The translations under genes and the position numbers were made by a program. Below the pieces are notes generated by a model. That model did no database searches and was not told the origin of the DNA. It worked only from the letters and a program-made list of their open reading frames with translations. A DNA stretch of 20,988 nt from a virus, in IMG/VR virus record IMGVR_UViG_3300027863_001748; one strand, written 5' to 3'. Positions 4,331 through 19,501 of the stretch are shown piece by piece (the stretch's first letter is position 1; each line of letters begins with the position of its first letter).

Positions 4331-4750
4331 TTGGCTGACGTTTCAGGCAAAACGTGGATGGCAATAGGCGAAACAGACGACCCATACGCTGTCATAGAAC
4401 GTTTCGAAGCTGCAGCAGCAATAACCAAAGGCGACCCAGTCTATCTAAGCGCAGACGACAAGGTCAGTCCCGCAACATCTGCTCAAGACTGCATAGGCAT
4501 CGCAGTGCAATCAGTTGCTTCTGGAGCCATGTGTCCCGTTCTGATTCGTGGAAGAATCAAAGTGAAAGCTGGTGGCGCAATAACCCGTGGCAAAGCAGTC
4601 TACGGAGCAGATGCAAGCAAAAGAGTCGTAGCATTAGCTGACATAAACGAAGGCGGATCCTCAACGATTTCTTGGACCAGAAAACTCGGGTGGGCTCTCG
4701 AAAACACAACAGCAGCAGACGACCTGCTCTTCATCATCGTGGAGAAGTGA
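4331..4750 (+). CDS. Capsid cement/decoration protein (DUF2190-like)
   Basis: FEAAAAITKGDPVYL...IGIAVQSVASG...VLIRG.IKVKAGGAITRGKAVY pattern; between protease and MCP. Confidence 0.7.
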   Translation: MADVSGKTWMAIGETDDPYAVIERFEAAAAITKGDPVYLSADDKVSPATSAQDCIGIAVQSVASGAMCPVLIRGRIKVKAGGAITRGKAVYGADASKRVVALADINEGGSSTISWTRKLGWALENTTAADDLLFIIVEK

Positions 4751-4755
4751 CAAAC

Positions 4756-5709
4756 ATGAAGCCTAAACTATTTGAAAGCCTCACGCAAAAAGACGGCGAA
4801 GTCAAGGAATTCTACGAGAACGTAAAAGGCAGAGCAACAACACACCCGTTCTTCAAACGCTATGCTGAAGTTGGAATAAAAGAAGGCTTGTTCAGCGACA
4901 TGGCTGGCGCACTAGGCAAGATGCATGACACGCTCATAGAAGCTGCTTATCCCGAAATGATAGGCAGAAACATCATCAACGTCAAACCAACAACCGAAGC
5001 CCTAGAACGATTCCCACTCGACGAAAAAGCTGTAGCCTACCTCTACACAGAAGGCTCAATAGCGAGATTATCTGGCAAGAAAATAAGCACCATCGACATT
5101 CAAACCAACACCTTCGCAGACGCTTCAGAAGAATGGACACGCGAATTCGCAGAAGACGCAACATGGAACGTCATGGACAACATGGTTGAAAAAGTCGGCA
5201 GAATCTTGGGCGAAACCGAAACAAACAAGATACTAGCGCTTTACGGAGCCATCGCAGACGCAGACCTAGCTGGTGGCGCACCAATTGCAGGCGGTGGAGC
5301 AGCCTTAAGCTGGGCTGGTCTCCTCAAGCTTCACAATGCCGTGCGTGGTGAAAACTGGCGCCCCTCAGTGCTTGTGGTGCATGAGACGCAACTGCATCAA
5401 CTGCTAAATGACGACAAGTTCATTCACGCCCAATACTTGCCTTCTGGACAAACCGACATTGAACGCGGAATCGTTACAAGCGTTTTAGGCATGAGAGTTC
5501 AAGCAAGCACGCTTGTGCCTAACGGAACGGCTTATGCGATTGATACTCGAGTGGCAGCAGTCATGCTTCTGCGCAGAGACGTTACTGTCGAAGACTGGGA
5601 AGACCCGAAAACTGGCAAGTTTGGAGTCAGAGCGACCACAAGGTTCGGCATGGGAGTCTTACGAAGCAAAGCAGTTGCCAAAATGACTAACATAAGCACA
5701 AGTCTGTAA
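4756..5709 (+). CDS. Major capsid protein (HK97 fold), 317 aa
   Basis: Start reassigned to ATG 4756 (GGAGAAGTGA SD, 5 nt after the previous stop). MCP-like segments include DNMVEKVGRILGETETNKIL, VLGMRVQASTLVP and DVTVEDWED...GVRATTRFGMGVLRSKAVAKM. Confidence 0.85.
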   Translation: MKPKLFESLTQKDGEVKEFYENVKGRATTHPFFKRYAEVGIKEGLFSDMAGALGKMHDTLIEAAYPEMIGRNIINVKPTTEALERFPLDEKAVAYLYTEGSIARLSGKKISTIDIQTNTFADASEEWTREFAEDATWNVMDNMVEKVGRILGETETNKILALYGAIADADLAGGAPIAGGGAALSWAGLLKLHNAVRGENWRPSVLVVHETQLHQLLNDDKFIHAQYLPSGQTDIERGIVTSVLGMRVQASTLVPNGTAYAIDTRVAAVMLLRRDVTVEDWEDPKTGKFGVRATTRFGMGVLRSKAVAKMTNISTSL

Positions 5710-6248: not shown

Positions 6249-7483
6249 GCAGTGTTTTAAAGCGGATTGTAGACGCTCTTTCTCGTTCGCCTTCGGCTGG
6301 CATCTCCTCTCCAAGTCAGCAAACAGTTTTTGAAACTTCGGTTATTCCGCTTGCTGACGTCATGAGGCTGTATGAAAGAGACCCAACATGCAAATCTAGC
6401 GTTGACTTACTCAGCGCTGCTACTGTGGGAATCGGTTTCTACACGACCTGTGAAGGCGGTTTTGAAAAGGCTAAACAAGTGATTGACGATTTCAATGAAG
6501 AGGTCAATCTTGACGGCCTTCTTAACCAGATGGTTTCACGTCTGATCGCTTGTGGAAACGATTTCTGGCTTAAACTGGTTCCAGACAAGCTTGAGGATTT
6601 GCGTAGGCTTCCGATAGACTCCATAGAGAAAATTCAAGAAAGCTTCATAGAAGGCAGCAATCTGAAGATTCCTTACAAGGTTGAAGGCTACAAACTCAAA
6701 TCTTCCTATGGCGGTGGAAGCCTCGACCCAAAGGCTGTTTTGCATTGGTCGATAGGTTCAGAGAATCCATGTGGATTTGGAGTCGGTGTCTTGCAAGTTC
6801 TTTTACACACTTTGACCGTTAACAATGATAAACGCCCTTCGTATGCTTGGATGAAAGCCAAAATCGAGCGGTTAATGCCAAAAATATTCGAGAGATACGC
6901 CGCTCCAGATGTTGTCGTTCAGTTGGAAGGACAGAAAGAGGACACCATTAAGAAGTTTGAAGCCAAAATCAGAAACAGATCCGAAGAAGGAGCATGGATC
7001 TTCAGCGGCGCTAAGACCGCAAGCGTCAACAGTGTAGCCATAGACCCAAGAGCCAGCGGTTTCGCACCCTACATCGACCACATGGTTAACCAGTTCTATC
7101 TCGGATGCGAGACTCCTCTTCCACGCCTTTTCAGCACACCTGGCTTCACAGAAGCTTCAGCCAATGCGGCTCTTGACCTTCAAAGCATGCTAATCAAACC
7201 TTTACAACGGTATATCAAGCGTCAAGTAGAAAGGGAAATCTTCGCGTTGGTTTTGTCGCAAGCTGGCTTTAACCCTGCAGAGGCCAAGGTGCGACTGAAT
7301 TGGGGTTCTCCAGAAACGCCTGAAATAGTGCCCACTGACTTGATTAAAGCGGCTGAACAGAATCTCATTCGCCCTGAAGAGTTCAGAAAGAATGCAGTTA
7401 AGGTTTTGAATTGGGAACTCTGGGACGAGCAACCCAAAGATTCTGCTTCTCAACAGTCAAAAGGAGGTGAAAACAAGCATTGA
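6245..7483 (+). CDS. Portal protein (probable CTG start at 6245, 412 aa; track start ATG 6362)
   Basis: Portal-like segments LYERDPTCKSSVDLL, LIACGNDF, VLHW, GFGVGVLQVL, CETPLPRLF and ALDLQSMLIKPLQRYIKRQVE. The frame is open to CTG 6245, which overlaps the upstream TGA (CTGA), with GGAGG at 6233-6237. Confidence 0.75.
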   Translation: MSSVLKRIVDALSRSPSAGISSPSQQTVFETSVIPLADVMRLYERDPTCKSSVDLLSAATVGIGFYTTCEGGFEKAKQVIDDFNEEVNLDGLLNQMVSRLIACGNDFWLKLVPDKLEDLRRLPIDSIEKIQESFIEGSNLKIPYKVEGYKLKSSYGGGSLDPKAVLHWSIGSENPCGFGVGVLQVLLHTLTVNNDKRPSYAWMKAKIERLMPKIFERYAAPDVVVQLEGQKEDTIKKFEAKIRNRSEEGAWIFSGAKTASVNSVAIDPRASGFAPYIDHMVNQFYLGCETPLPRLFSTPGFTEASANAALDLQSMLIKPLQRYIKRQVEREIFALVLSQAGFNPAEAKVRLNWGSPETPEIVPTDLIKAAEQNLIRPEEFRKNAVKVLNWELWDEQPKDSASQQSKGGENKH

Positions 7484-7734
7484 ATCCGTTAAATATCGGC
7501 TTGGGAGTCGTTGCAGCGTTAATCTATGCCTTCTTGGGCTACTCAGCACAGGACAAGCCTTTCGACTGGAAAAAGTTTCTGCGGACAGTTGCCATAGGCA
7601 CGTTTTCAGCGTTAGGCTTGGATTTGGCTGGCTTGACCTTTGACGTCTACACCGCTCTAGTGGGTCCTACAGCGATAACAGTGTGGCTCACAAAACTGGT
7701 TGACACTGCAAAACCCGAGCCCATACCGAAATAA
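7480..7734 (+). CDS. Small membrane protein, holin-like
   Basis: 84 aa with 2-3 hydrophobic segments separated by the charged loop QDKPFDWKKF; TTGA overlap with the portal stop. Confidence 0.5.
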   Translation: MNPLNIGLGVVAALIYAFLGYSAQDKPFDWKKFLRTVAIGTFSALGLDLAGLTFDVYTALVGPTAITVWLTKLVDTAKPEPIPK

Positions 7735-7797: not shown

Positions 7798-8199
7798 TTG
7801 TCTGTTCCATGGGGGCAATATGCGGAAGCATACAAAGCGATACATGATAAGTTAGTGGAAATTCTTGTCCAGCTCTCAGTAAAAATTGAAGATGCAAATC
7901 AATACACAGGCACATATGCTCCTACTGGTGCAGGCTCTACAACTATTGTTTCATCAGTTTCAGGCAAGACTATCAAGATTTATGACTTTTATCTCTGGAA
8001 TAGCGGAACAGCAGATGTTGGTGTTCGCCTCTACTTTGGCGCAAGCGGAAAAAATGTCTTTAAGGGAAAGTTGGCAGCGAAGACAGGCGTCATTCGAAGC
8101 ATGGTAAGGCATTGGGAAAGCAATGCTGATGACTCGCTTGTTCTGTATTTGGACGCGGCTGGAACTGTTGATTATGGTGTAGGAGCAGTGCAAAGCTAA
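7798..8199 (+). CDS. Hypothetical beta-rich protein, probable virion component
   Basis: 133 aa; N-terminal helix followed by a G/T/S/V-rich beta pattern; inside the structural operon. Confidence 0.55.
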   Translation: MSVPWGQYAEAYKAIHDKLVEILVQLSVKIEDANQYTGTYAPTGAGSTTIVSSVSGKTIKIYDFYLWNSGTADVGVRLYFGASGKNVFKGKLAAKTGVIRSMVRHWESNADDSLVLYLDAAGTVDYGVGAVQS

Positions 8200-8200
8200 A

Positions 8201-9325
8201 ATGCCTACGGTGTCAAAGAACCCTTGGCAAACAGAAGTTATTGTTTCGGGCTGGAATTATCCAGAAAGAGCTTATGGAGAGGATGGAATAAACACTTATG
8301 CAAGTCCGCCAGATGAAAGCACAAAGCCTGAGCAAAAATACTCTGGATTTAACTTCACAGAAAGCGACATTCCACCAAGCAGTCAAATAACTAAAGTTGA
8401 AATGGGAGCAAAACACTACGAGACAGATCCAAGCGGATACATTCAATACACGACTCTGAAACACGTAAACTCCTTAGGGTCAACATCTACATATCAGTTG
8501 ACAAGACGAACATCCTTAACATGGGACTGGATAGACATAACAAGCAGAGAAACAAGCTGGGATCTAGCAAAACTAAACAATGCTGATGTCCGCATAATTT
8601 CTGAAATCCACTCGGCAGGTGGAGGCGGAGGCTGTAACCCTACAGATGTCTATTTTTTGGGAAAGGATGAAGGGGGGTGGATAATGCGTAGAGCAAAAGA
8701 GCTTAAAGAAGGTGATGTCCTTCTGGCATGGCACCCAGAAAAAGGTCTAATCTTCTCAAAAGTCAAGTCTATACAAAGCTTCACAGGATTGCAGAAACTT
8801 ATAACACTGTTCTTACCCAAACTCAAGTTTCCAAGCTTGTCTAAAAAGGGTGAAATATTCGAGTGGCAGCCTCACTTAACTGTGACAGGACAGCATCAGC
8901 TTTATTTTGCAAAGAAAGGCAGCAGACGAGGCGAGTACGCTTGGTTCATGCTCAAGTCTGAAGAGTTGCACACTCGTATGATGTCCGGAGAGAAAGACTT
9001 CTATGTCGGGACGCTATGGAAAGCTGAAACGTTAGCACCCTTACCTCTTGAAAGGGTCGACCTCCACGAAAAAGTTGAAACCGTTTACAAAGTCACCCTA
9101 ATCGATGAAGCAGCCACATTATTTGCTGACCAATACTGGCATGAAGATTTGGCGTTGCTTAAAACACATGGTTACGGATTGCGGGAAACACCTATGTCAA
9201 TGCCATTGCTCAGCCAACTGCTAAAACAAACATCGTACGTTGACACTATAGTTTTGCGTGCAACGTACGCTTTGCTTAAGGAAATGCAGATAACAGGAGA
9301 AGGGTTGACTTGTGTCATAGCCTAA
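8201..9325 (+). CDS. Probable virion/adhesion beta-sandwich protein interrupted by a Hint (intein-like) domain
   Basis: GGGGG|C145 N-terminal junction, block B LTVTGQH and block F VYKVTL...LFA; the host domain resumes at TSYVDTIVLRATY. Confidence 0.7.
   Translation: MPTVSKNPWQTEVIVSGWNYPERAYGEDGINTYASPPDESTKPEQKYSGFNFTESDIPPSSQITKVEMGAKHYETDPSGYIQYTTLKHVNSLGSTSTYQLTRRTSLTWDWIDITSRETSWDLAKLNNADVRIISEIHSAGGGGGCNPTDVYFLGKDEGGWIMRRAKELKEGDVLLAWHPEKGLIFSKVKSIQSFTGLQKLITLFLPKLKFPSLSKKGEIFEWQPHLTVTGQHQLYFAKKGSRRGEYAWFMLKSEELHTRMMSGEKDFYVGTLWKAETLAPLPLERVDLHEKVETVYKVTLIDEAATLFADQYWHEDLALLKTHGYGLRETPMSMPLLSQLLKQTSYVDTIVLRATYALLKEMQITGEGLTCVIA
8633..9229 (+). other. Hint / mini-intein-like domain (Cys145 to about Gln343), no homing endonuclease
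   Basis: Cys1, TxxH and block F present; proposed C-terminal junction LLKQ|T. The C-terminal boundary is uncertain. Confidence 0.65.
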
Positions 9326-9378: not shown

Positions 9379-10149
9379 CTAATATCTCCGAAATGGAGCT
9401 TCCTTGATCGAGTCTATTCCTCTTCTGGAATCTGGCCAATGGTATATTACTAGCCTAGAATCTTTTTCCATTTTAGCCAGTTCGTCCTGAAAATAGGGAA
9501 TCCGCCTTCTGTCAAGTGCATCGAGAAGAATGAAGAATGCATTTCTAGTAATGCTACTCTTGAGACAAGCTTCGAGTTTTCTAATATCTTCCCTTACTCC
9601 ATCTTCGTAAAACGTTCTTCCCCAACCAGGCAATATCATCTTGATCTCAATCATTGCCTCATAAGGTGGAAAATCTGTTTCATTTCGCCATGCCTTTTTG
9701 AACTTATTATGATCAATCACGACAAGATCCGCACGTCGTGTTCGCGGCCATTTCTCTGTCCTCACGTACTTAGGTCTCTCTATACTGCCTTCTGCATGAA
9801 CACACCATTCCGATCCAATGGAACGAGATACTGTCCTTTTCCTAAGATGACTATACAATGCCCATTGCACATCTCGTTCATTCCAATAATAAGCTCCGCC
9901 ATAGTTCTCGTCCAGATGAGAATTTTGTCTGTAATCTTTCAAAAAGTGTTTTATGCAAGCTTCAACTGCCAGTGCCTTCTTGCTTCTTCGTGGCAAATTC
10001 TCAACCAATTTTACAAGAACACTCGTTAAGCCTTTAACTTTTTTCACATTAGGACAATTGTTGAAAAAGACAAGTATGTTAAGATTTCCAAATCCAAGTC
10101 TTACGGTTTCTGTTTGAATCACTTGTTTTTCATGCTTATTTTTCAGCAA
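9379..10149 (-). CDS. PD-(D/E)XK-fold nuclease-like protein, antisense insertion in the structural operon (true start possibly TTG 10008)
   Basis: NERDVQWAL helix, RADLVVI, IEIK and EDIRKL match the E-PD-ExK arrangement; AT-rich 5' flank. Confidence 0.6.
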   Translation of the reverse strand: MLKNKHEKQVIQTETVRLGFGNLNILVFFNNCPNVKKVKGLTSVLVKLVENLPRRSKKALAVEACIKHFLKDYRQNSHLDENYGGAYYWNERDVQWALYSHLRKRTVSRSIGSEWCVHAEGSIERPKYVRTEKWPRTRRADLVVIDHNKFKKAWRNETDFPPYEAMIEIKMILPGWGRTFYEDGVREDIRKLEACLKSSITRNAFFILLDALDRRRIPYFQDELAKMEKDSRLVIYHWPDSRRGIDSIKEAPFRRY

Positions 10150-10215: not shown

Positions 10216-10569
10216 TTGGTAGACGTGTCTGCTGATGATGTTCGAGATGTTATAAACGTTAGTTCAGCGGATATACCTGATGATAAGATTCTGAAGATGA
10301 TTAAACGTGCAGAAGTCACGCTTGAACTTGAAACAGGCAAAGACATAGACTATAGCGAATGCTCAGATGCTGAAAAGGAATTCATAACGGTTCTTGCTGC
10401 CGTCTATGCTGTCTGTTATCTTACTGGTGGTTCAGCAGTTGGCTTAAGCTTCACAGTAGGCGACCAAAACGTCAACATTCTAAGCAAGGCTCCACCGTTG
10501 GATGTGCTGCAATCTGAGTTAGAGCGAATCTTGCGCAGTCTTAAACTGCCTTATGTGGGGAGTGCTTGA
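10216..10569 (+). CDS. Head-tail adaptor (gp6/gp15-like)
   Basis: 117 aa, helical; VSADDVR...IPDDKILKMIKRAE...SFTVGD pattern; first neck gene, preceded by GAGGT. Confidence 0.65.
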   Translation: MVDVSADDVRDVINVSSADIPDDKILKMIKRAEVTLELETGKDIDYSECSDAEKEFITVLAAVYAVCYLTGGSAVGLSFTVGDQNVNILSKAPPLDVLQSELERILRSLKLPYVGSA

Positions 10570-11960
10570 TGGTAACAGTGCCTGAAGCCTACTACCAATT
10601 CATAATGGATTATGCGCCTTACGTTTACGTGATTCCGCCAGACACTCCAGACCCAGCTTGGGGAAGAGCAGCCTTTGCCGCAGCCTTCGCCATCGACTTC
10701 CTCTCCGAAGCCTATAACAGTAAGCAGTTTGAAAACAAAAAAACAGACATCTACAACAAAATCGTGAATCTCGCCGACTGGATTCTAACCCAACAATGCA
10801 CAGACCCAGCCAAGAAAGCTTATGGCGGATTCAAAAGCAACGAAACAAGCACATACTATTACAGCGTTGACGCTTGCCGAGTCATCCCGTCGCTTCTACG
10901 AGCCTACGACGTGACAAACGATGAGGATTATCTGAATGCTGCCAAGCTTGCCGGAGCCACGTTTCTCAAAACCATGCAGGATCAACAAGCCTATGGCGGA
11001 TTCGCAAGAGCCGTCACAATCGCAGACGCTTGGCTTTTGCAAATGGATGTTGAATGTCTCTATGGGCTTATAGGTTTGAAGATGCTTGCTGAAAAATACG
11101 ACACAGCCAACGCCTCAACGTATGAGGACATAATGAACAAGGCTGCCAACTTTCTCAGGCAAGGACTCGAAAACCTCTGGCTATACTACGACCCTGCAGA
11201 TGACAAATGGCACAGAATCGGTCTAAGCGAAAACGAGATTTACGATGACCCCTTCGCTTACGCTTTGCTCGGCTTGTATGAATACGAAGGCTGGAGCCTC
11301 ACATGCCAAAAAATCTACAACTTCATCAACTCAATCCGAGCAAGCGCCCAATACCCCGCCTACAACCCCGCAGTCTGCTGGGCAGGCTACATAGACGTAA
11401 TAAGCCGATTCGCAGCATGCGACTACTACGATGCAGTCACAAGCGGAATCCTCTGGAAAATCCGCAAAGCTCATGACAAGCCAAGCTTTGAATTTAGCAT
11501 GAAAATTATCGACAAGCATCAAGATGAGTTTATGTTCTGGGGCGCCAAGCACACAGACTACAGCTATGTGGAAAACAAGAAGGCGATGGCAACCGTATGC
11601 TGGCTTTCTCTCCTCTATCTAAACTACGAGGAACCGACAACACGTTTCAAGCAAATCCTCCGCTCAAACGGAGAAAACATCACATTATACCAGATCCGTG
11701 AAGCCTCAGAACAAACCAGCTACGGCGAAGACATAGACATAAAAGCCATAGTCTCACCAGCAAGAGCAGAAGAAACCCTCATAGAACCTGGCTACATCCT
11801 AAACGACTACATAACCATCCACGTCTTTGCTCCCATCAGACATCATGACAAAATCCGCAGAAAAGGAACAGACTACGAGGTTCTGGACCTTCAAACTTTC
11901 GATTTCCGAGGCGAAACAATCTACTTCAAAGCATACTGCAGGAGGCTTCTCGGACAATGA
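10566..11960 (+). CDS. Fusion of an alpha/alpha-toroid domain (six-hairpin glycosidase or prenyltransferase-like) with a C-terminal head-closure/stopper-like domain
   Basis: Helical repeats with LADWILTQQ...YGGF and FLKTMQ...YGGF. The last ~110 aa are beta-rich (GENITLY...IKAIVSP...HHDKIRRKGTDYEV...YFKAYCRRL) and occupy the stopper position between adaptor and terminator. Confidence 0.6.
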   Translation: MMVTVPEAYYQFIMDYAPYVYVIPPDTPDPAWGRAAFAAAFAIDFLSEAYNSKQFENKKTDIYNKIVNLADWILTQQCTDPAKKAYGGFKSNETSTYYYSVDACRVIPSLLRAYDVTNDEDYLNAAKLAGATFLKTMQDQQAYGGFARAVTIADAWLLQMDVECLYGLIGLKMLAEKYDTANASTYEDIMNKAANFLRQGLENLWLYYDPADDKWHRIGLSENEIYDDPFAYALLGLYEYEGWSLTCQKIYNFINSIRASAQYPAYNPAVCWAGYIDVISRFAACDYYDAVTSGILWKIRKAHDKPSFEFSMKIIDKHQDEFMFWGAKHTDYSYVENKKAMATVCWLSLLYLNYEEPTTRFKQILRSNGENITLYQIREASEQTSYGEDIDIKAIVSPARAEETLIEPGYILNDYITIHVFAPIRHHDKIRRKGTDYEVLDLQTFDFRGETIYFKAYCRRLLGQ

Positions 11961-12945: not shown

Positions 12946-13815
12946 ATGCCAGAAACTTATGGAGCGCATGAATGCCGTGCCTACTTCGTTCAAGAATCAG
13001 TCTACGGTCAGACACCAACAAACCCGTCAATGCTTGGCATAAACAGCGAAGACATTGAACCATCATTAGACCCATGCCTACTCAAATTGCGAGGCGTTGG
13101 CTCCAGAGACCTTCAAGCCTTGAAGAGAGGACTGCGCAATTCAACATTGAAGATTCTGCATGTCTTGTCCAGCGAGGCACCCATATCTTTCGTTCAACAT
13201 GCTCAAACGCTAAACAGCTTAAGCCTTCAAGTGCTGTATTACAAAGGCTTGTTTGCCTCGGCAACCGACATAATAAGCCTACTCTACAAAGGCTGCAGAA
13301 TACACAAACTAAGCGTAGAATGCAGCATAGAAGACATCGTAAAGGCTACAGCCGAGCTTATTGGGCAAACTGTTGAAATAGGGACCTCAAAAATAACAGG
13401 AGCCACCTACGCAGACTACGCGGGAGCGGTTTCTTACAACGAAAGCTATATTCAAAGAGGAGCGGGTGACGGCTCAGGCTTAACCGCACTCGAAAGAGTG
13501 ACAGACTGGAAATTTACAATCGAAAACAACCTCAAGCCAGTGCCAGTAATCCGTAGCGAAGAAGGCTATCTGCTAAAGTATCTTCCAGCACGCCACCGCA
13601 ACCTGATGGGCGAGTTAACCTTCGAGTTTGAGAGCAAACAAGAATACGACGACATCATAAACGACAGTGAATTCAGCCTCAAATTCGGCTTAGGCGGAAC
13701 AACCAGCGCCCTTTTCAAGTATTGCAAATGGGAGAAAGTGGCAACTCCAACACGAATCGAAGACCTTGTCGCCTTGAAGGCTTCCTTTGTTTCAAGAGAC
13801 GTTTACATCAGTTAG
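12946..13815 (+). CDS. Major tail tube protein
   Basis: N-terminal YFVQESVYGQTP, VTDWKFTIENNL, RNLMGELTFEF; 289 aa; upstream of the chaperone and TMP. Confidence 0.8.
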   Translation: MPETYGAHECRAYFVQESVYGQTPTNPSMLGINSEDIEPSLDPCLLKLRGVGSRDLQALKRGLRNSTLKILHVLSSEAPISFVQHAQTLNSLSLQVLYYKGLFASATDIISLLYKGCRIHKLSVECSIEDIVKATAELIGQTVEIGTSKITGATYADYAGAVSYNESYIQRGAGDGSGLTALERVTDWKFTIENNLKPVPVIRSEEGYLLKYLPARHRNLMGELTFEFESKQEYDDIINDSEFSLKFGLGGTTSALFKYCKWEKVATPTRIEDLVALKASFVSRDVYIS

Positions 13816-17772: not shown

Positions 17773-18108
17773 GTGTATAGTCATAGGCTTAGGGGCAAGG
17801 TAAGACGTGCTCAAAAGGAAGTTGAGACTGGAACGCAAAGGCTCAGGCAGAAGCTGATAACGCAACTCGAATCAATGTTTGACCTGGCTGAACAGTCTGC
17901 AAGAAACGCCAAGACACCCAAACAACGTGAAGGATTCATGCGCATTACAGGCTACATCGCCCAAGTCTTGAACAGCCTCAGCCGCTCTTTCGACGAGGCT
18001 CTGATTAACGAGGAACTGGACCGTTTGGAGAAGATGATTGATGAGGCAATCACAAAAGACAAGGATAAAGGAACTGCAACAGCGGTTCAAGGATCATCTG
18101 GAAGCTAA
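17773..18108 (+). CDS. Putative terminase small subunit
   Basis: 111-aa helical, basic protein immediately upstream of and overlapping TerL; positional call only. Confidence 0.45.
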   Translation: MYSHRLRGKVRRAQKEVETGTQRLRQKLITQLESMFDLAEQSARNAKTPKQREGFMRITGYIAQVLNSLSRSFDEALINEELDRLEKMIDEAITKDKDKGTATAVQGSSGS

Positions 18109-19501
18109 GGCAAAGCGGATTCCAGAAGACTTTGTCAAATTCACAGAGCATATGCTGGGCTTAAAGTTAACCGCTTACCAGAAAGAAGCCGCAGAACTTC
18201 TGAGCAAGAATGATTCTGTTGCTTTAAGATGGAGTAGGCAATCGGGAAAAACGCATTTGATCTCTGCTTGGCTACTGCACTACGCTCTGTTGCATGATGG
18301 TTATCAAATCGCAATTGTGGGTCCTAGCTGGCGCCAAACAAAAATTCCCATAACCAAAATCAACGGATTCCTTACTAGAATTCCGAAAGGCTACTATCAT
18401 AAGTTGCAGCAGACAATCGTTAGGCTGAAGAACCAGTCAGTCATCCAAGCCTTGCCATGTAGCCCAGAAACCGTGAGAGGGTTTTCGTTAAACTGCGTGT
18501 ACATGGACGAAGCCAATTGGATTAACCATGATGAGGAGCTGTATGATGCCATATTGTTTACTCTTGCAACCACTGGAGGCAAGTTTATCTGCAGCAGCAC
18601 ACCAGGCAGCGCCGACAGCCTATTCTGGAAAATCTTCAACAGACCACAATTCGCAAGGTTCGCAAAGAGCCACGTCACATGGGAGCAAGCCTTAGAACCT
18701 AATGGACCTATGAGGCGGAAGTGGCTTGAAGACCGCAAGCAAGAGTATGAGGGCGACCCATGGCGGTGGAAACGGGAGCTTGAGGCAGAATGGGCAGAAG
18801 ACGAGAGCGTCTGGATACCACTAAGCCTCATAACGAAGTGCATTGACAGCGAACTGGAGCTTTGGGATTTTGAAAGCCTCCACAGAGGCAAATTCTATGG
18901 CGGGCTGGATCTTGGCAAGCATCAAGACTATTCTGCATTCATCGTGATCGAAGATGTCGACGGCAAATACTTGCTGAGACACGTGAAAGTGTTTCCGCTT
19001 GAAACAAAATACGCCACAGTCATAGGTTACGTGAAAACCTTAACGGACAGATGGCAGACTTTTGAGAAAATCCGCGTTGACACAACTGGAGTTGGCGAAT
19101 ACATCACTGAGGACATGGCTAATGGCGGAATCGAAAACGTCGAAGCTGTAACCTTCACTAGCAGCAGAAAACAAGAGTTGGCAAGCATCTTGAAGCAGCG
19201 GATGCTGGATGCAGCTTATAGCTTTCCCTTTGTCAACATACAAGTCTCACCGAACAAGAGCCTCAGCTATGTCAACGAGCTTAACATAGAAAAATTCGAA
19301 CTCAGAAAGGACGGGGCACTGCATTTCTCGCACCCGCAAAACCAACATGACGATGTCTGGTGGGCAACAGCATTAGCAATATCCTGCGGAGTAAAACTGG
19401 CTCCAGACCCACTTCTAGCTGTAATACCCAGACGAGGCAACAAACTGCAACAGGTTCGCAAAAAACTGAACAAACGAAAGGTTCTGGGAGTTACGAGATG
19501 A
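18038..19501 (+). CDS. terL: Terminase large subunit
   Basis: YQ motif, Walker A RWSRQSGKT, Walker B VYMDE, coupling motif SSTP, nuclease GLDLGKHQD, VDTTGVG and HDDVWWATALA. Start TTG 18038 or ATG 18041. Confidence 0.95.
   Translation: MMRQSQKTRIKELQQRFKDHLEAKAKRIPEDFVKFTEHMLGLKLTAYQKEAAELLSKNDSVALRWSRQSGKTHLISAWLLHYALLHDGYQIAIVGPSWRQTKIPITKINGFLTRIPKGYYHKLQQTIVRLKNQSVIQALPCSPETVRGFSLNCVYMDEANWINHDEELYDAILFTLATTGGKFICSSTPGSADSLFWKIFNRPQFARFAKSHVTWEQALEPNGPMRRKWLEDRKQEYEGDPWRWKRELEAEWAEDESVWIPLSLITKCIDSELELWDFESLHRGKFYGGLDLGKHQDYSAFIVIEDVDGKYLLRHVKVFPLETKYATVIGYVKTLTDRWQTFEKIRVDTTGVGEYITEDMANGGIENVEAVTFTSSRKQELASILKQRMLDAAYSFPFVNIQVSPNKSLSYVNELNIEKFELRKDGALHFSHPQNQHDDVWWATALAISCGVKLAPDPLLAVIPRRGNKLQQVRKKLNKRKVLGVTR

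Follow-up and report, generated by a model that had tools for sequence, protein, structure and literature searches.

The stretch of DNA considered here, referred to throughout as the window, is the 20,988-nucleotide (nt) virus record IMGVR_UViG_3300027863_001748 of IMG/VR. Its plus strand encodes a 374-amino acid (aa) protein in which a Hedgehog/intein (Hint) domain is nested in the last beta-hairpin of a beta-sandwich, an arrangement that is confirmed in an AlphaFold2 (AF2) model. With moderate confidence, we read this domain as a domesticated autoprocessing module, resembling bacterial intein-like (BIL) and Hedgehog domains, within a jelly-roll virion protein of the carbohydrate-binding module (CBM) type; its chemistry, its acceptor, and its location in the virion are all inferred. 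Judging from the position of its gene, the protein is likely a surface component of the virion of an uncultured tailed virus or provirus of Bathyarchaeia. Its family shows a further Hint pattern, in which the residues that serve the first and second steps of splicing are kept, the third step is systematically lost, the insertion site in the hairpin is fixed, and the C-terminal flank has repeatedly been split off into a small gene.

The Hint Fold and the Sandwich around It

The AF2 model of the protein was built from 17 homologs and has a mean predicted local distance difference test (pLDDT) score of 78.8. The Hint domain comprises residues 145-343 (199 residues), and in VIA-align it matched the Hedgehog Hog domain 1at0 (Z 15.9, root-mean-square deviation 2.2, 141 aligned residues), the NpuDnaB intein 4o1r (Z 15.6), and the BIL domain 2lwy of C. 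thermocellum (Z 14.6); the first two aligned over model residues 145 to 342/343. The top 27 rows were all Hint proteins (inteins, BIL, or Hog). The best Foldseek match was BIL2 of Tetrahymena BUBL1 (6tmm; E 7e-5, probability 1.00), which carries little weight because Hint folds all match one another about equally well. There is no insert of the size of a homing endonuclease in the Hint region of the model, which holds just two short extra helices, and none of the ~50 family members possesses such an endonuclease. The model, with its Z of 15.9 to 1at0, thus bears out the proposal of a first-pass annotation that an endonuclease-free Hint domain is nested in a beta-sandwich. The motifs quoted in that annotation were all recovered, namely S-A-G5|C145-N-P-T-D, T229-G-Q-H232, VYKVTL...LFADQ (295-311), and L-L-K342-Q343|T344-S-Y-V-D-T-I-V-L-R-A-T-Y. 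Full-length intein alignments stop at model residue 342-344, and a modeled strand takes the place of the inteins' last one (Table 1). The family-specific insertion of ~25 residues between blocks F and G is missing from six relatives (P0017, P0053, P0059, P0050, P0058, and P0061).

The sandwich itself matched the GH78 accessory domain, PAPP-A, the Eph ligand-binding domain, CBM29, CBM16, and CBM4 in VIA-align (Z 9-10). These matches begin at model residue 1-4 and end at 355-357, which means that strand 345-357, on the far side of the Hint domain, completes the N-terminal sandwich, and the flanks form one domain as had been supposed. The likeness to CBMs is at the level of the fold, with no Pfam family matched, and sugar binding is putative. 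Residues W18 and P21 are invariant in 49 distant relatives. In the C-terminal tail, G366 is nearly invariant. The tail motif also ends the separate C-terminal peptides described below (IGDGLSGVVVII; ...LLGVGR) and the Hint-less protein of locus L039 (...GYSQGVIIG).

Conservation of Catalytic and Junction Residues

Conservation was followed in a close subfamily, consisting of the window protein and 16 homologs (n=17), and in a wider family of 49 distant relatives. Mean identity in the close subfamily was 65% for the sandwich (16 homologs), 50% for the last strand, and 32% for the Hint domain. Although the Hint domain evolves fastest (32% vs. 65% for the sandwich), its catalytic residues are kept, a pattern that supports a working domain. 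G143, G144, and C145 are invariant (17/17), and C145 is retained in at least 90% of the 49 relatives. T229 of block B is present in 16/17 sequences, as are K342, which makes the penultimate residue Lys rather than His, and T344, from which P0014, with its divergent C-terminus, is the exception. The block B His position is occupied by His in 7/17 sequences (window included) and by Gln in 10/17. The wider family shows the motifs GG|C[YF]PxNT in block A and (L/V)-T-x-N-H-P in block B, and the family motif of block F is G-x-V-Y-[DN/K]-h ... F.

The Lys-Gln|Thr sequence at the end of the domain had been taken for a Gln-type intein terminus, a claim that found no support at the family level. Gln343 is limited to the window protein and its 88%-identical relative; elsewhere, the position holds L, Y, T, S, A, E, V, W, K, F, R, G, C, P, or D (~16 residue types), and Asn was found in 0 of 38 Hint-bearing sequences. 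In the alignment, position 343 behaves as a linker of 0-5 residues that connects a Lys and a Thr, both conserved. A canonical His-Asn pair with Leu or Val after it, the type A BIL arrangement, is retained in three relatives (P0017, P0053, and P0059), and by sequence this pair aligns with W-H-E-D316-L of the window protein. The alternative junction that had been suggested near YWHE coincides with this site, where the subfamily has Asp/Glu-Leu throughout and a helix starts in the model. On either reading of the junction (YWHED or K342-Q343), a conserved cyclizable residue before the nucleophile is absent.

Thr344 occupies the D-4 position, four residues before the Asp of Y-x-D-W. This position is Thr or Ser in 43/43 Hint-associated forms, both nested and split, and in 7/11 Hint-less forms, the others having F, C, D, or P. 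By our calculation, which ignores relatedness, the chance of all four exceptions being Hint-less is ~0.001.

Hint-Less, Nested, and Split Relatives

The ~60 relatives fall into three forms: Hint-less, nested, and split. Nested forms read ...GG|C-Hint-K-(x)-T-x-Y-V-D-W-L-P-V-R-V-T-Y. Hint-less homologs, for which the first-pass annotation had proposed a search, were found as distant relatives in three settings. These include large Bathyarchaeia open reading frames (ORFs; of the 401 genomes in this class, 12 matched, 8 of them with the sandwich only), P0057 (...STAG-TYYVNWIPV), and stand-alone proteins of ~160-175 aa on IMG/VR contigs (L039 and L041/L052). Examples of their continuous hairpins are ...RIRITQIKQGGQDTTYVDWLPVRVTH, ...KVRMKLYSTAGTYYVNWIPVRVQYY, and ...QVTHKKSGGSDFVSLDWIPVEVIY. 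Because such homologs exist, excision of residues 145-343 would recreate a native-like domain of ~175 aa. Hint-less forms are confined to distant relatives; a search for close homologs shorter than 205 aa yielded just one 87-aa fragment. The 130-aa P0065, which consists of the sandwich only, was excluded from the count since it may be cut at a contig end. A degenerate DNA scan of IMG/VR for Y-V-D-W-[LI]-P-V returned 29 loci, of which 6 belong to this family (L039, L041, L044, L050, and L052, plus the neighbors of L050, used for context only) and the others match by chance in proteins of no relation. A cellular Bathyarchaeia locus (L024; G225:C19) carries a giant ORF, a 1938-aa open frame with tandem Hint-less sandwich copies that repeat the pattern W-x-N-P-x-x-A ... 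D-W-I-P-V-E-V-T-Y.

The Hint genes of split relatives stop at the equivalent of Lys342 (...VEIK*, ...WEKK*, ...IVKV*, ...MYKVPW*) with real stop codons. In five split loci, the missing last strand is encoded separately, in adjacent ORFs of 37-55 aa (Table 1), and all five retain [K/R]-(x)-T-x-Y-h-D-W-h-P-V together with the G-x-G tail motif. In the C-peptide of L029 (1227-1379), the start of the strand is duplicated (RFYVDW-KNK-TVYVDW). The last-strand ORFs of L028 (1383-1556) and L050 (minus strand, ~200-330 of the reverse complement) lack an ATG, GTG, or TTG start, so that their translation would depend on a near-cognate codon or on frameshifting out of the Hint gene.

On a tree of the N-terminal domain, Hint-terminal forms do not group together but occur scattered among nested forms, and well-supported branches force at least three changes; sandwiches with and without a Hint domain are also interspersed, which forces at least four changes. 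The tree is short (137 columns) and has long branches, so this interspersion is weakly resolved.

Family Searches

The protein has 17 homologs at 35-88% identity, one of them named as derived from a Candidatus Bathyarchaeia metagenome-assembled genome, and an exhaustive HMMER search gave 54 cluster representatives. One IMG/VR record, classified as a provirus, contains an identical copy of the protein. No Pfam family matches the window protein; among its relatives, four match Hint PF01079 (best E 7e-8) and three match Intein_splicing PF14890. In PHROGs, its top match was the non-significant phrog_5271 (E 0.021), and a scan with 49 relatives returned nothing consistent. A tblastn search of 50,697 phage records gave zero matches, the family profile found nothing below E 0.9 among PDB sequences, and residues 1-144 scored ~0.8 to viral clusters in the ESM Atlas, which is the chance level. 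A literature search, with most subscription journals outside its coverage, found no paper on this family or on a Hint domain in a structural protein of an archaeal virus. Longer family members have PKD domains and hydrophobic ends that resemble signals or anchors, so archaeal cell surfaces also make use of the module.

Proposed Mechanism and Alternative Explanations

Hedgehog processing leaves an ester on the protein's own C-terminal Gly. In the window protein, Cys145, aided by Thr229 and His232 of block B, would turn the Gly144-Cys145 bond into a thioester through an N-to-S acyl shift, and the acyl group, i.e., the N-terminal sandwich ending in its five glycines, would then move to the hydroxyl of Thr344. 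Excision, the third step, would be blocked because no Asn or conserved cyclizable residue precedes Thr344. The end state may be a branched, ester-locked sandwich with the Hint domain hanging from Thr344 or, upon hydrolysis, a 16.0-kDa N-terminal fragment and a 26.4-kDa fragment of Hint plus strand that would be held together by strand complementation. In the split relatives, the first two steps alone would ligate the sandwich to the peptide and release the Hint domain, with no need for the third. Published work holds that this third step requires Asn (rarely Gln, Asp, or Glu), usually with a penultimate His, and that type B BILs without block G perform cleavage only (PMC4031507); BIL2 of BUBL forms an isopeptide link to a Lys side chain (PMC8616854). 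Because position 343 is variable and never Asn, and the penultimate residue is Lys, canonical splicing is unlikely as the function of the family and would be a minority possibility for the window protein, which has Gln343. Lys342 was considered as the acyl acceptor and rejected as the first choice: in the split Hint genes, conservation ends with the equivalent Lys, which places it in the Hint domain and not in the acceptor peptide, and the Lys-Thr distance varies from 0 to 5 residues.

It is tempting to take the scheme further, to a possible though doubtful form in which the Hint domain serves as a built-in ligase. Splicing would then be arrested by design at the branched intermediate, and an ester between the Gly144 carboxyl and the Thr344 hydroxyl would lock the last strand in place. 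In split forms, the sandwich-Hint donor would covalently capture a tag peptide of 37-55 aa and discard the Hint domain, a natural tag/catcher built on thioester chemistry, and the whole could irreversibly fix a glycan-binding adhesin onto a turret or decoration complex together with UP, the product of the upstream partner gene (described below).

Several observations weigh against our reading of the domain as an autoprocessing module that passes its acyl group to Thr344. The block B His is Gln in 10 of the 17 close-subfamily members, so activity may be weakened or lost in part of the clade. Since pLDDT falls below 50 at both Hint junctions (140-144 and 341-343), as well as at 329-335, the placement of Thr344 at +1 rests on a weak part of the model. 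The His-Asn relatives P0017 and P0059 have their conserved Thr 5-8 residues past the Asn, and not at +1, which weakens the case for Thr as the acceptor. Conservation at D-4 may be partly structural or inherited, given that Thr or Ser is already found there in 7 of the 11 Hint-less forms. Finally, a branched product with a tethered Hint domain has no obvious advantage over a Hint-less domain, and all of the proposed processing is inferred from sequence and model.

Among the alternatives, true splicing would excise a 199-residue mini-intein by cyclization of Gln343 and join Gly144 to Thr344, giving a 175-aa (19.4-kDa) sandwich that would look like the Hint-less P0057 and L039. The window protein does have Cys1, the block B Thr and His, a +1 Thr, and a terminal Gln, and Gln-ended inteins such as those of Pab PolII and CIV RNR do splice (PMC4031507). 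The lack of conservation of Gln343, the complete absence of Asn at its position, and the penultimate Lys in place of His nevertheless make this quite unlikely, as do the Hint C-terminus of the split relatives, which is unattached to the last strand, and the lack of a Hint-less allele among the close relatives searched. An unlikely explanation is intermolecular acyl transfer, in which a nucleophile from outside the protein, such as a Lys or Thr residue in UP or in the capsid, or else a glycan or lipid of the host, would attack the Gly144 thioester and the sandwich would thereby be mounted covalently, in a way akin to Hedgehog or BUBL processing. The Gly-rich end before the Cys recalls the G|C of Hedgehog and the GG|C of BUBL, the pairing with UP is kept across distant relatives, and UP has nearly invariant Lys85, Lys89, and Lys95. 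BIL2 of BUBL1, the best Foldseek match, forms Lys isopeptides (PMC8616854), but this match weighs little given the mutual similarity of Hint folds. Furthermore, the acceptor is putative, and such transfer would leave unexplained both the tracking of Thr344 and the last strand with the Hint domain and the dedicated C-peptide of the split forms.

A catalytically dead Hint domain, retained as a structural or spacer domain with no bond broken or made, is similarly unlikely. It would account for the fast evolution (32% identity), the absence of a Pfam Hint match for the window protein, the change of the block B His to Gln in 10/17 close relatives, and the lost His-Asn of block G. However, an invariant Gly-Gly-Cys, with Thr229, Lys342, and Thr344 kept down to ~21-25% identity, is hard to explain without chemistry, and split forms would be pointless without transfer or cleavage. 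It is highly improbable that the domain is the remnant of a selfish or once-mobile mini-intein of no benefit to its host protein. Homing into one site would predict the constant insertion in the same hairpin, and on the N-domain tree, sandwiches that carry the Hint domain are interspersed with those that lack it, at least four changes being forced, but the tree resolves this weakly. Moreover, no member among ~50 has a homing endonuclease, and without Asn the element cannot remove itself harmlessly. These points, along with an architecture and partner gene kept across deep divergence, agree with the first-pass annotation in favoring a domesticated, vertically kept module over a mobile intein.

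The Upstream Partner and Neighboring Genes

The window is a tailed-virus structural module by its gene content (Table 1). In the window and in the related loci L001, L003, and L005, the Hint gene is located between the portal and head-tail adaptor genes, and the gene for UP always precedes it. A UP homolog lies directly upstream of the Hint gene in 9/9 related loci checked, at 60-77% identity; UP is better conserved than the Hint protein, and the two genes are translationally coupled. UP is also present in distant loci, including split ones (33-35% identity in L016/L017; 27%, E 9e-18, in L026). Its AF2 model (pLDDT 88.8) matches the A223 turret jelly roll of Sulfolobus turreted icosahedral virus (STIV; Z 10.6), the trimeric cement protein of KHP40 (Z 9.3), and a turret chain of HFTV1 (Z 7.8), and many of its matches in BFVD are "virion structural proteins" of ~107-120 aa. 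As a lead only, and by analogy with HFTV1, UP and the Hint protein may together make up an appendage of the capsid or neck on which the glycan-binding sandwich is displayed, such Z values being common among beta-sandwiches. In L005 and L012, UP carries a middle insertion of ~80-145 residues.

Other genes of the region deserve brief mention. An 84-aa hydrophobic protein is encoded between the portal gene and UP (7480-7734, plus strand) and is kept in L005 (84 aa); in the distant locus L006, a different membrane protein precedes the Hint gene. Just past the Hint gene, a 256-aa minus-strand gene without a family match (9379-10149) interrupts the plus-strand virion module. By eye, its product has a D...E-x-K-like motif (ADLVVID...IEIK), making it a candidate PD-(D/E)xK nuclease. 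Relatives hold other minus-strand cargo in this slot (a 242-aa protein plus DUF488 in L003; Laminin_G_3/zinc-ribbon proteins in L005), which therefore resembles an island of variable cargo. A 464-aa protein encoded in the head-tail joining region (10566-11960, plus strand) has a syntenic 463-aa counterpart in L003; it matches PF06662, the C-terminal domain of D-glucuronyl C5-epimerase, at a score below the 23.3 cut-off (E 8e-5, 22.6 bits).

Table 1. Features of the Hint protein, its gene neighborhood, and the separately encoded last strands of split relatives.
Feature	Locus	Coordinates	Strand	Description
Whole ORF	Window	8201..9325	+	374 aa, stop codon included; order sandwich (N), Hint, last strand, tail
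N-terminal sandwich	Window	8201..8632	+	Residues 1-144; jelly-roll/CBM-like; ends in Gly5 run (140-144, nt 8618-8632)
Hint domain	Window	8633..9229	+	Residues 145-343; predicted block A nucleophile Cys145 (8633-8635, TGT); mean identity 32%
Block B	Window	8885..8896	+	Sequence motif T229-G-Q-H232
Block F hairpin	Window	9077..9133	+	Residues 293-311, ETVYKVTLIDEAATLFADQ; modeled strands 285-300 and 306-311
F-G insertion	Window	9134..9208	+	Residues 312-336, family-specific; YWHED, helix 314-322, low-confidence loop (AF2 model and alignment)
Block-G-like strand and linker	Window	9209..9229	+	L337-K342, then linker Q343; model strand 337-341 in place of inteins' last strand
Thr344 and last sandwich strand	Window	9230..9271	+	Residues 344-357, TSYVDTIVLRATYA; Thr344 at 9230-9232 (model and alignment)
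C-terminal tail	Window	9272..9322	+	Residues 358-374; G-[ED]-G-L motif; modeled as disordered
UP	Window	7798..8199	+	133 aa; N-terminal helix, then 8-strand jelly roll; stop 1 nt before Hint gene ATG
Cement protein	Window	4331-4750		Pfam-type
HK97-type capsid protein	Window	4672-5709		
Tail tube	Window	12946-13815		
HK97-gp10-like protein	Window			
TerL	Window	18038-19501		
C-peptide	L029	1227-1379		50 aa, MRKIDGKLRFYVDWKNKTVYVDWLPVRVTYTPPAVPRYIGDGLSGVVVII; ATGA overlap with Hint gene stop
C-peptide	L030	1223-1297		MRRRKHSKTCYLDWIPVKVTYTPPV...; ATGA overlap with Hint gene stop
C-peptide ORF	L026	822-989		Between UP and sandwich-Hint gene
C-peptide ORF	L050			Between UP and sandwich-Hint gene
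Last strand	L028			+1 frame over end of Hint gene; no ATG

Comparison with Known Systems

BIL domains are reportedly divided into types A and B (Amitai 2003; Dassa 2004), with 2LWY as a structure. Like them, the window domain has the Hint fold (Z 14.6 to 2lwy), Cys1, a block B TxxH, and no endonuclease, and it is located in what appears to be a variable surface or secreted protein rather than a conserved enzyme. Its motif pattern, with blocks A and B present and no similarity in block G, fits type B, of which it may be a candidate member with a putative activity of cleavage uncoupled from splicing. Unlike type A, the window protein has no C-terminal His-Asn; the aligned residues are W-H-E-D-L, and the modeled end is K-Q. 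Further differences from BIL domains include the nesting in the last jelly-roll hairpin, a conserved hydroxyl residue (Thr344) at the start of the downstream strand, a conserved Lys at the end of the Hint domain, the helix insertion of ~25 residues between blocks F and G, split forms with the C-terminal flank as a separate peptide, and hosts that are archaea and their viruses.

The Hedgehog Hog domain (1AT0) is the best structural match and shares the scissile Gly|Cys, and an ester would likewise form on a C-terminal Gly if Thr344 is the acceptor. In contrast to Hog, the window protein has no sterol-recognition region; past residue 343, it has only a sandwich strand and a 17-residue tail. The proposed acceptor is a protein side chain and not cholesterol, and the Hint domain is nested, being C-terminal only in split relatives. 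BIL2 of BUBL1 (6TMM/6Y75) has a similar Gly-Gly|Cys junction and ligates its upstream domain to a Lys side chain (PMC8616854). That upstream domain is ubiquitin-like, however, and BIL2 has a C-terminal Asn (the crystallized mutant is N143A); homology is shown at the level of the Hint fold only. Gln-ended class 1 mini-inteins, such as that of Pyrococcus abyssi PolII, resemble the window domain in Cys1, TxxH, the +1 Thr, the terminal Gln, and the lack of an endonuclease. In the present family, by contrast, the Gln is unconserved, the penultimate residue is Lys, the host protein does not belong to the conserved nucleic-acid enzymes, close relatives show no empty alleles, and split relatives are cut after the whole Hint domain and not inside it.

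Outside of the Hint proteins, the turret of HFTV1 offers a parallel, as adjacent genes encode its base, gp30, and its head, gp31, which carries a CBM (bioRxiv 10.1101/2024.12.09.627619). In both archaeal tailed viruses, a gene for a small jelly-roll protein (the base in HFTV1; UP, Z 7.8, in the window) is followed by one for a jelly-roll protein with carbohydrate-binding function or, in the window, a CBM-like fold. The HFTV1 proteins differ in having no Hint domain, no sequence homology was found between the systems, and the window has a separate cement protein (4331-4750).

Known outcomes of Hint domains include splicing (inteins), cleavage (BILs), cholesterol esterification (Hedgehog), and isopeptide formation (BUBL). 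As judged from alignments and model, the family is distinguished from these by its conserved +1 hydroxyl without a cyclizable terminus, Lys-ended block G, F-G helix insertion, split forms, and conserved partner gene. If true, the proposed scheme would add a new outcome to Hint catalysis, i.e., a stable branched or ester-ligated protein, as well as a maturation step for the surface proteins of archaeal viruses, a little-known area. It would also constitute a natural peptide-capture system of possible biotechnological use. Even if only cleavage occurs, the family would provide a well-defined and easily testable autoprocessing system, with Hint-less, nested, and split members for comparison.

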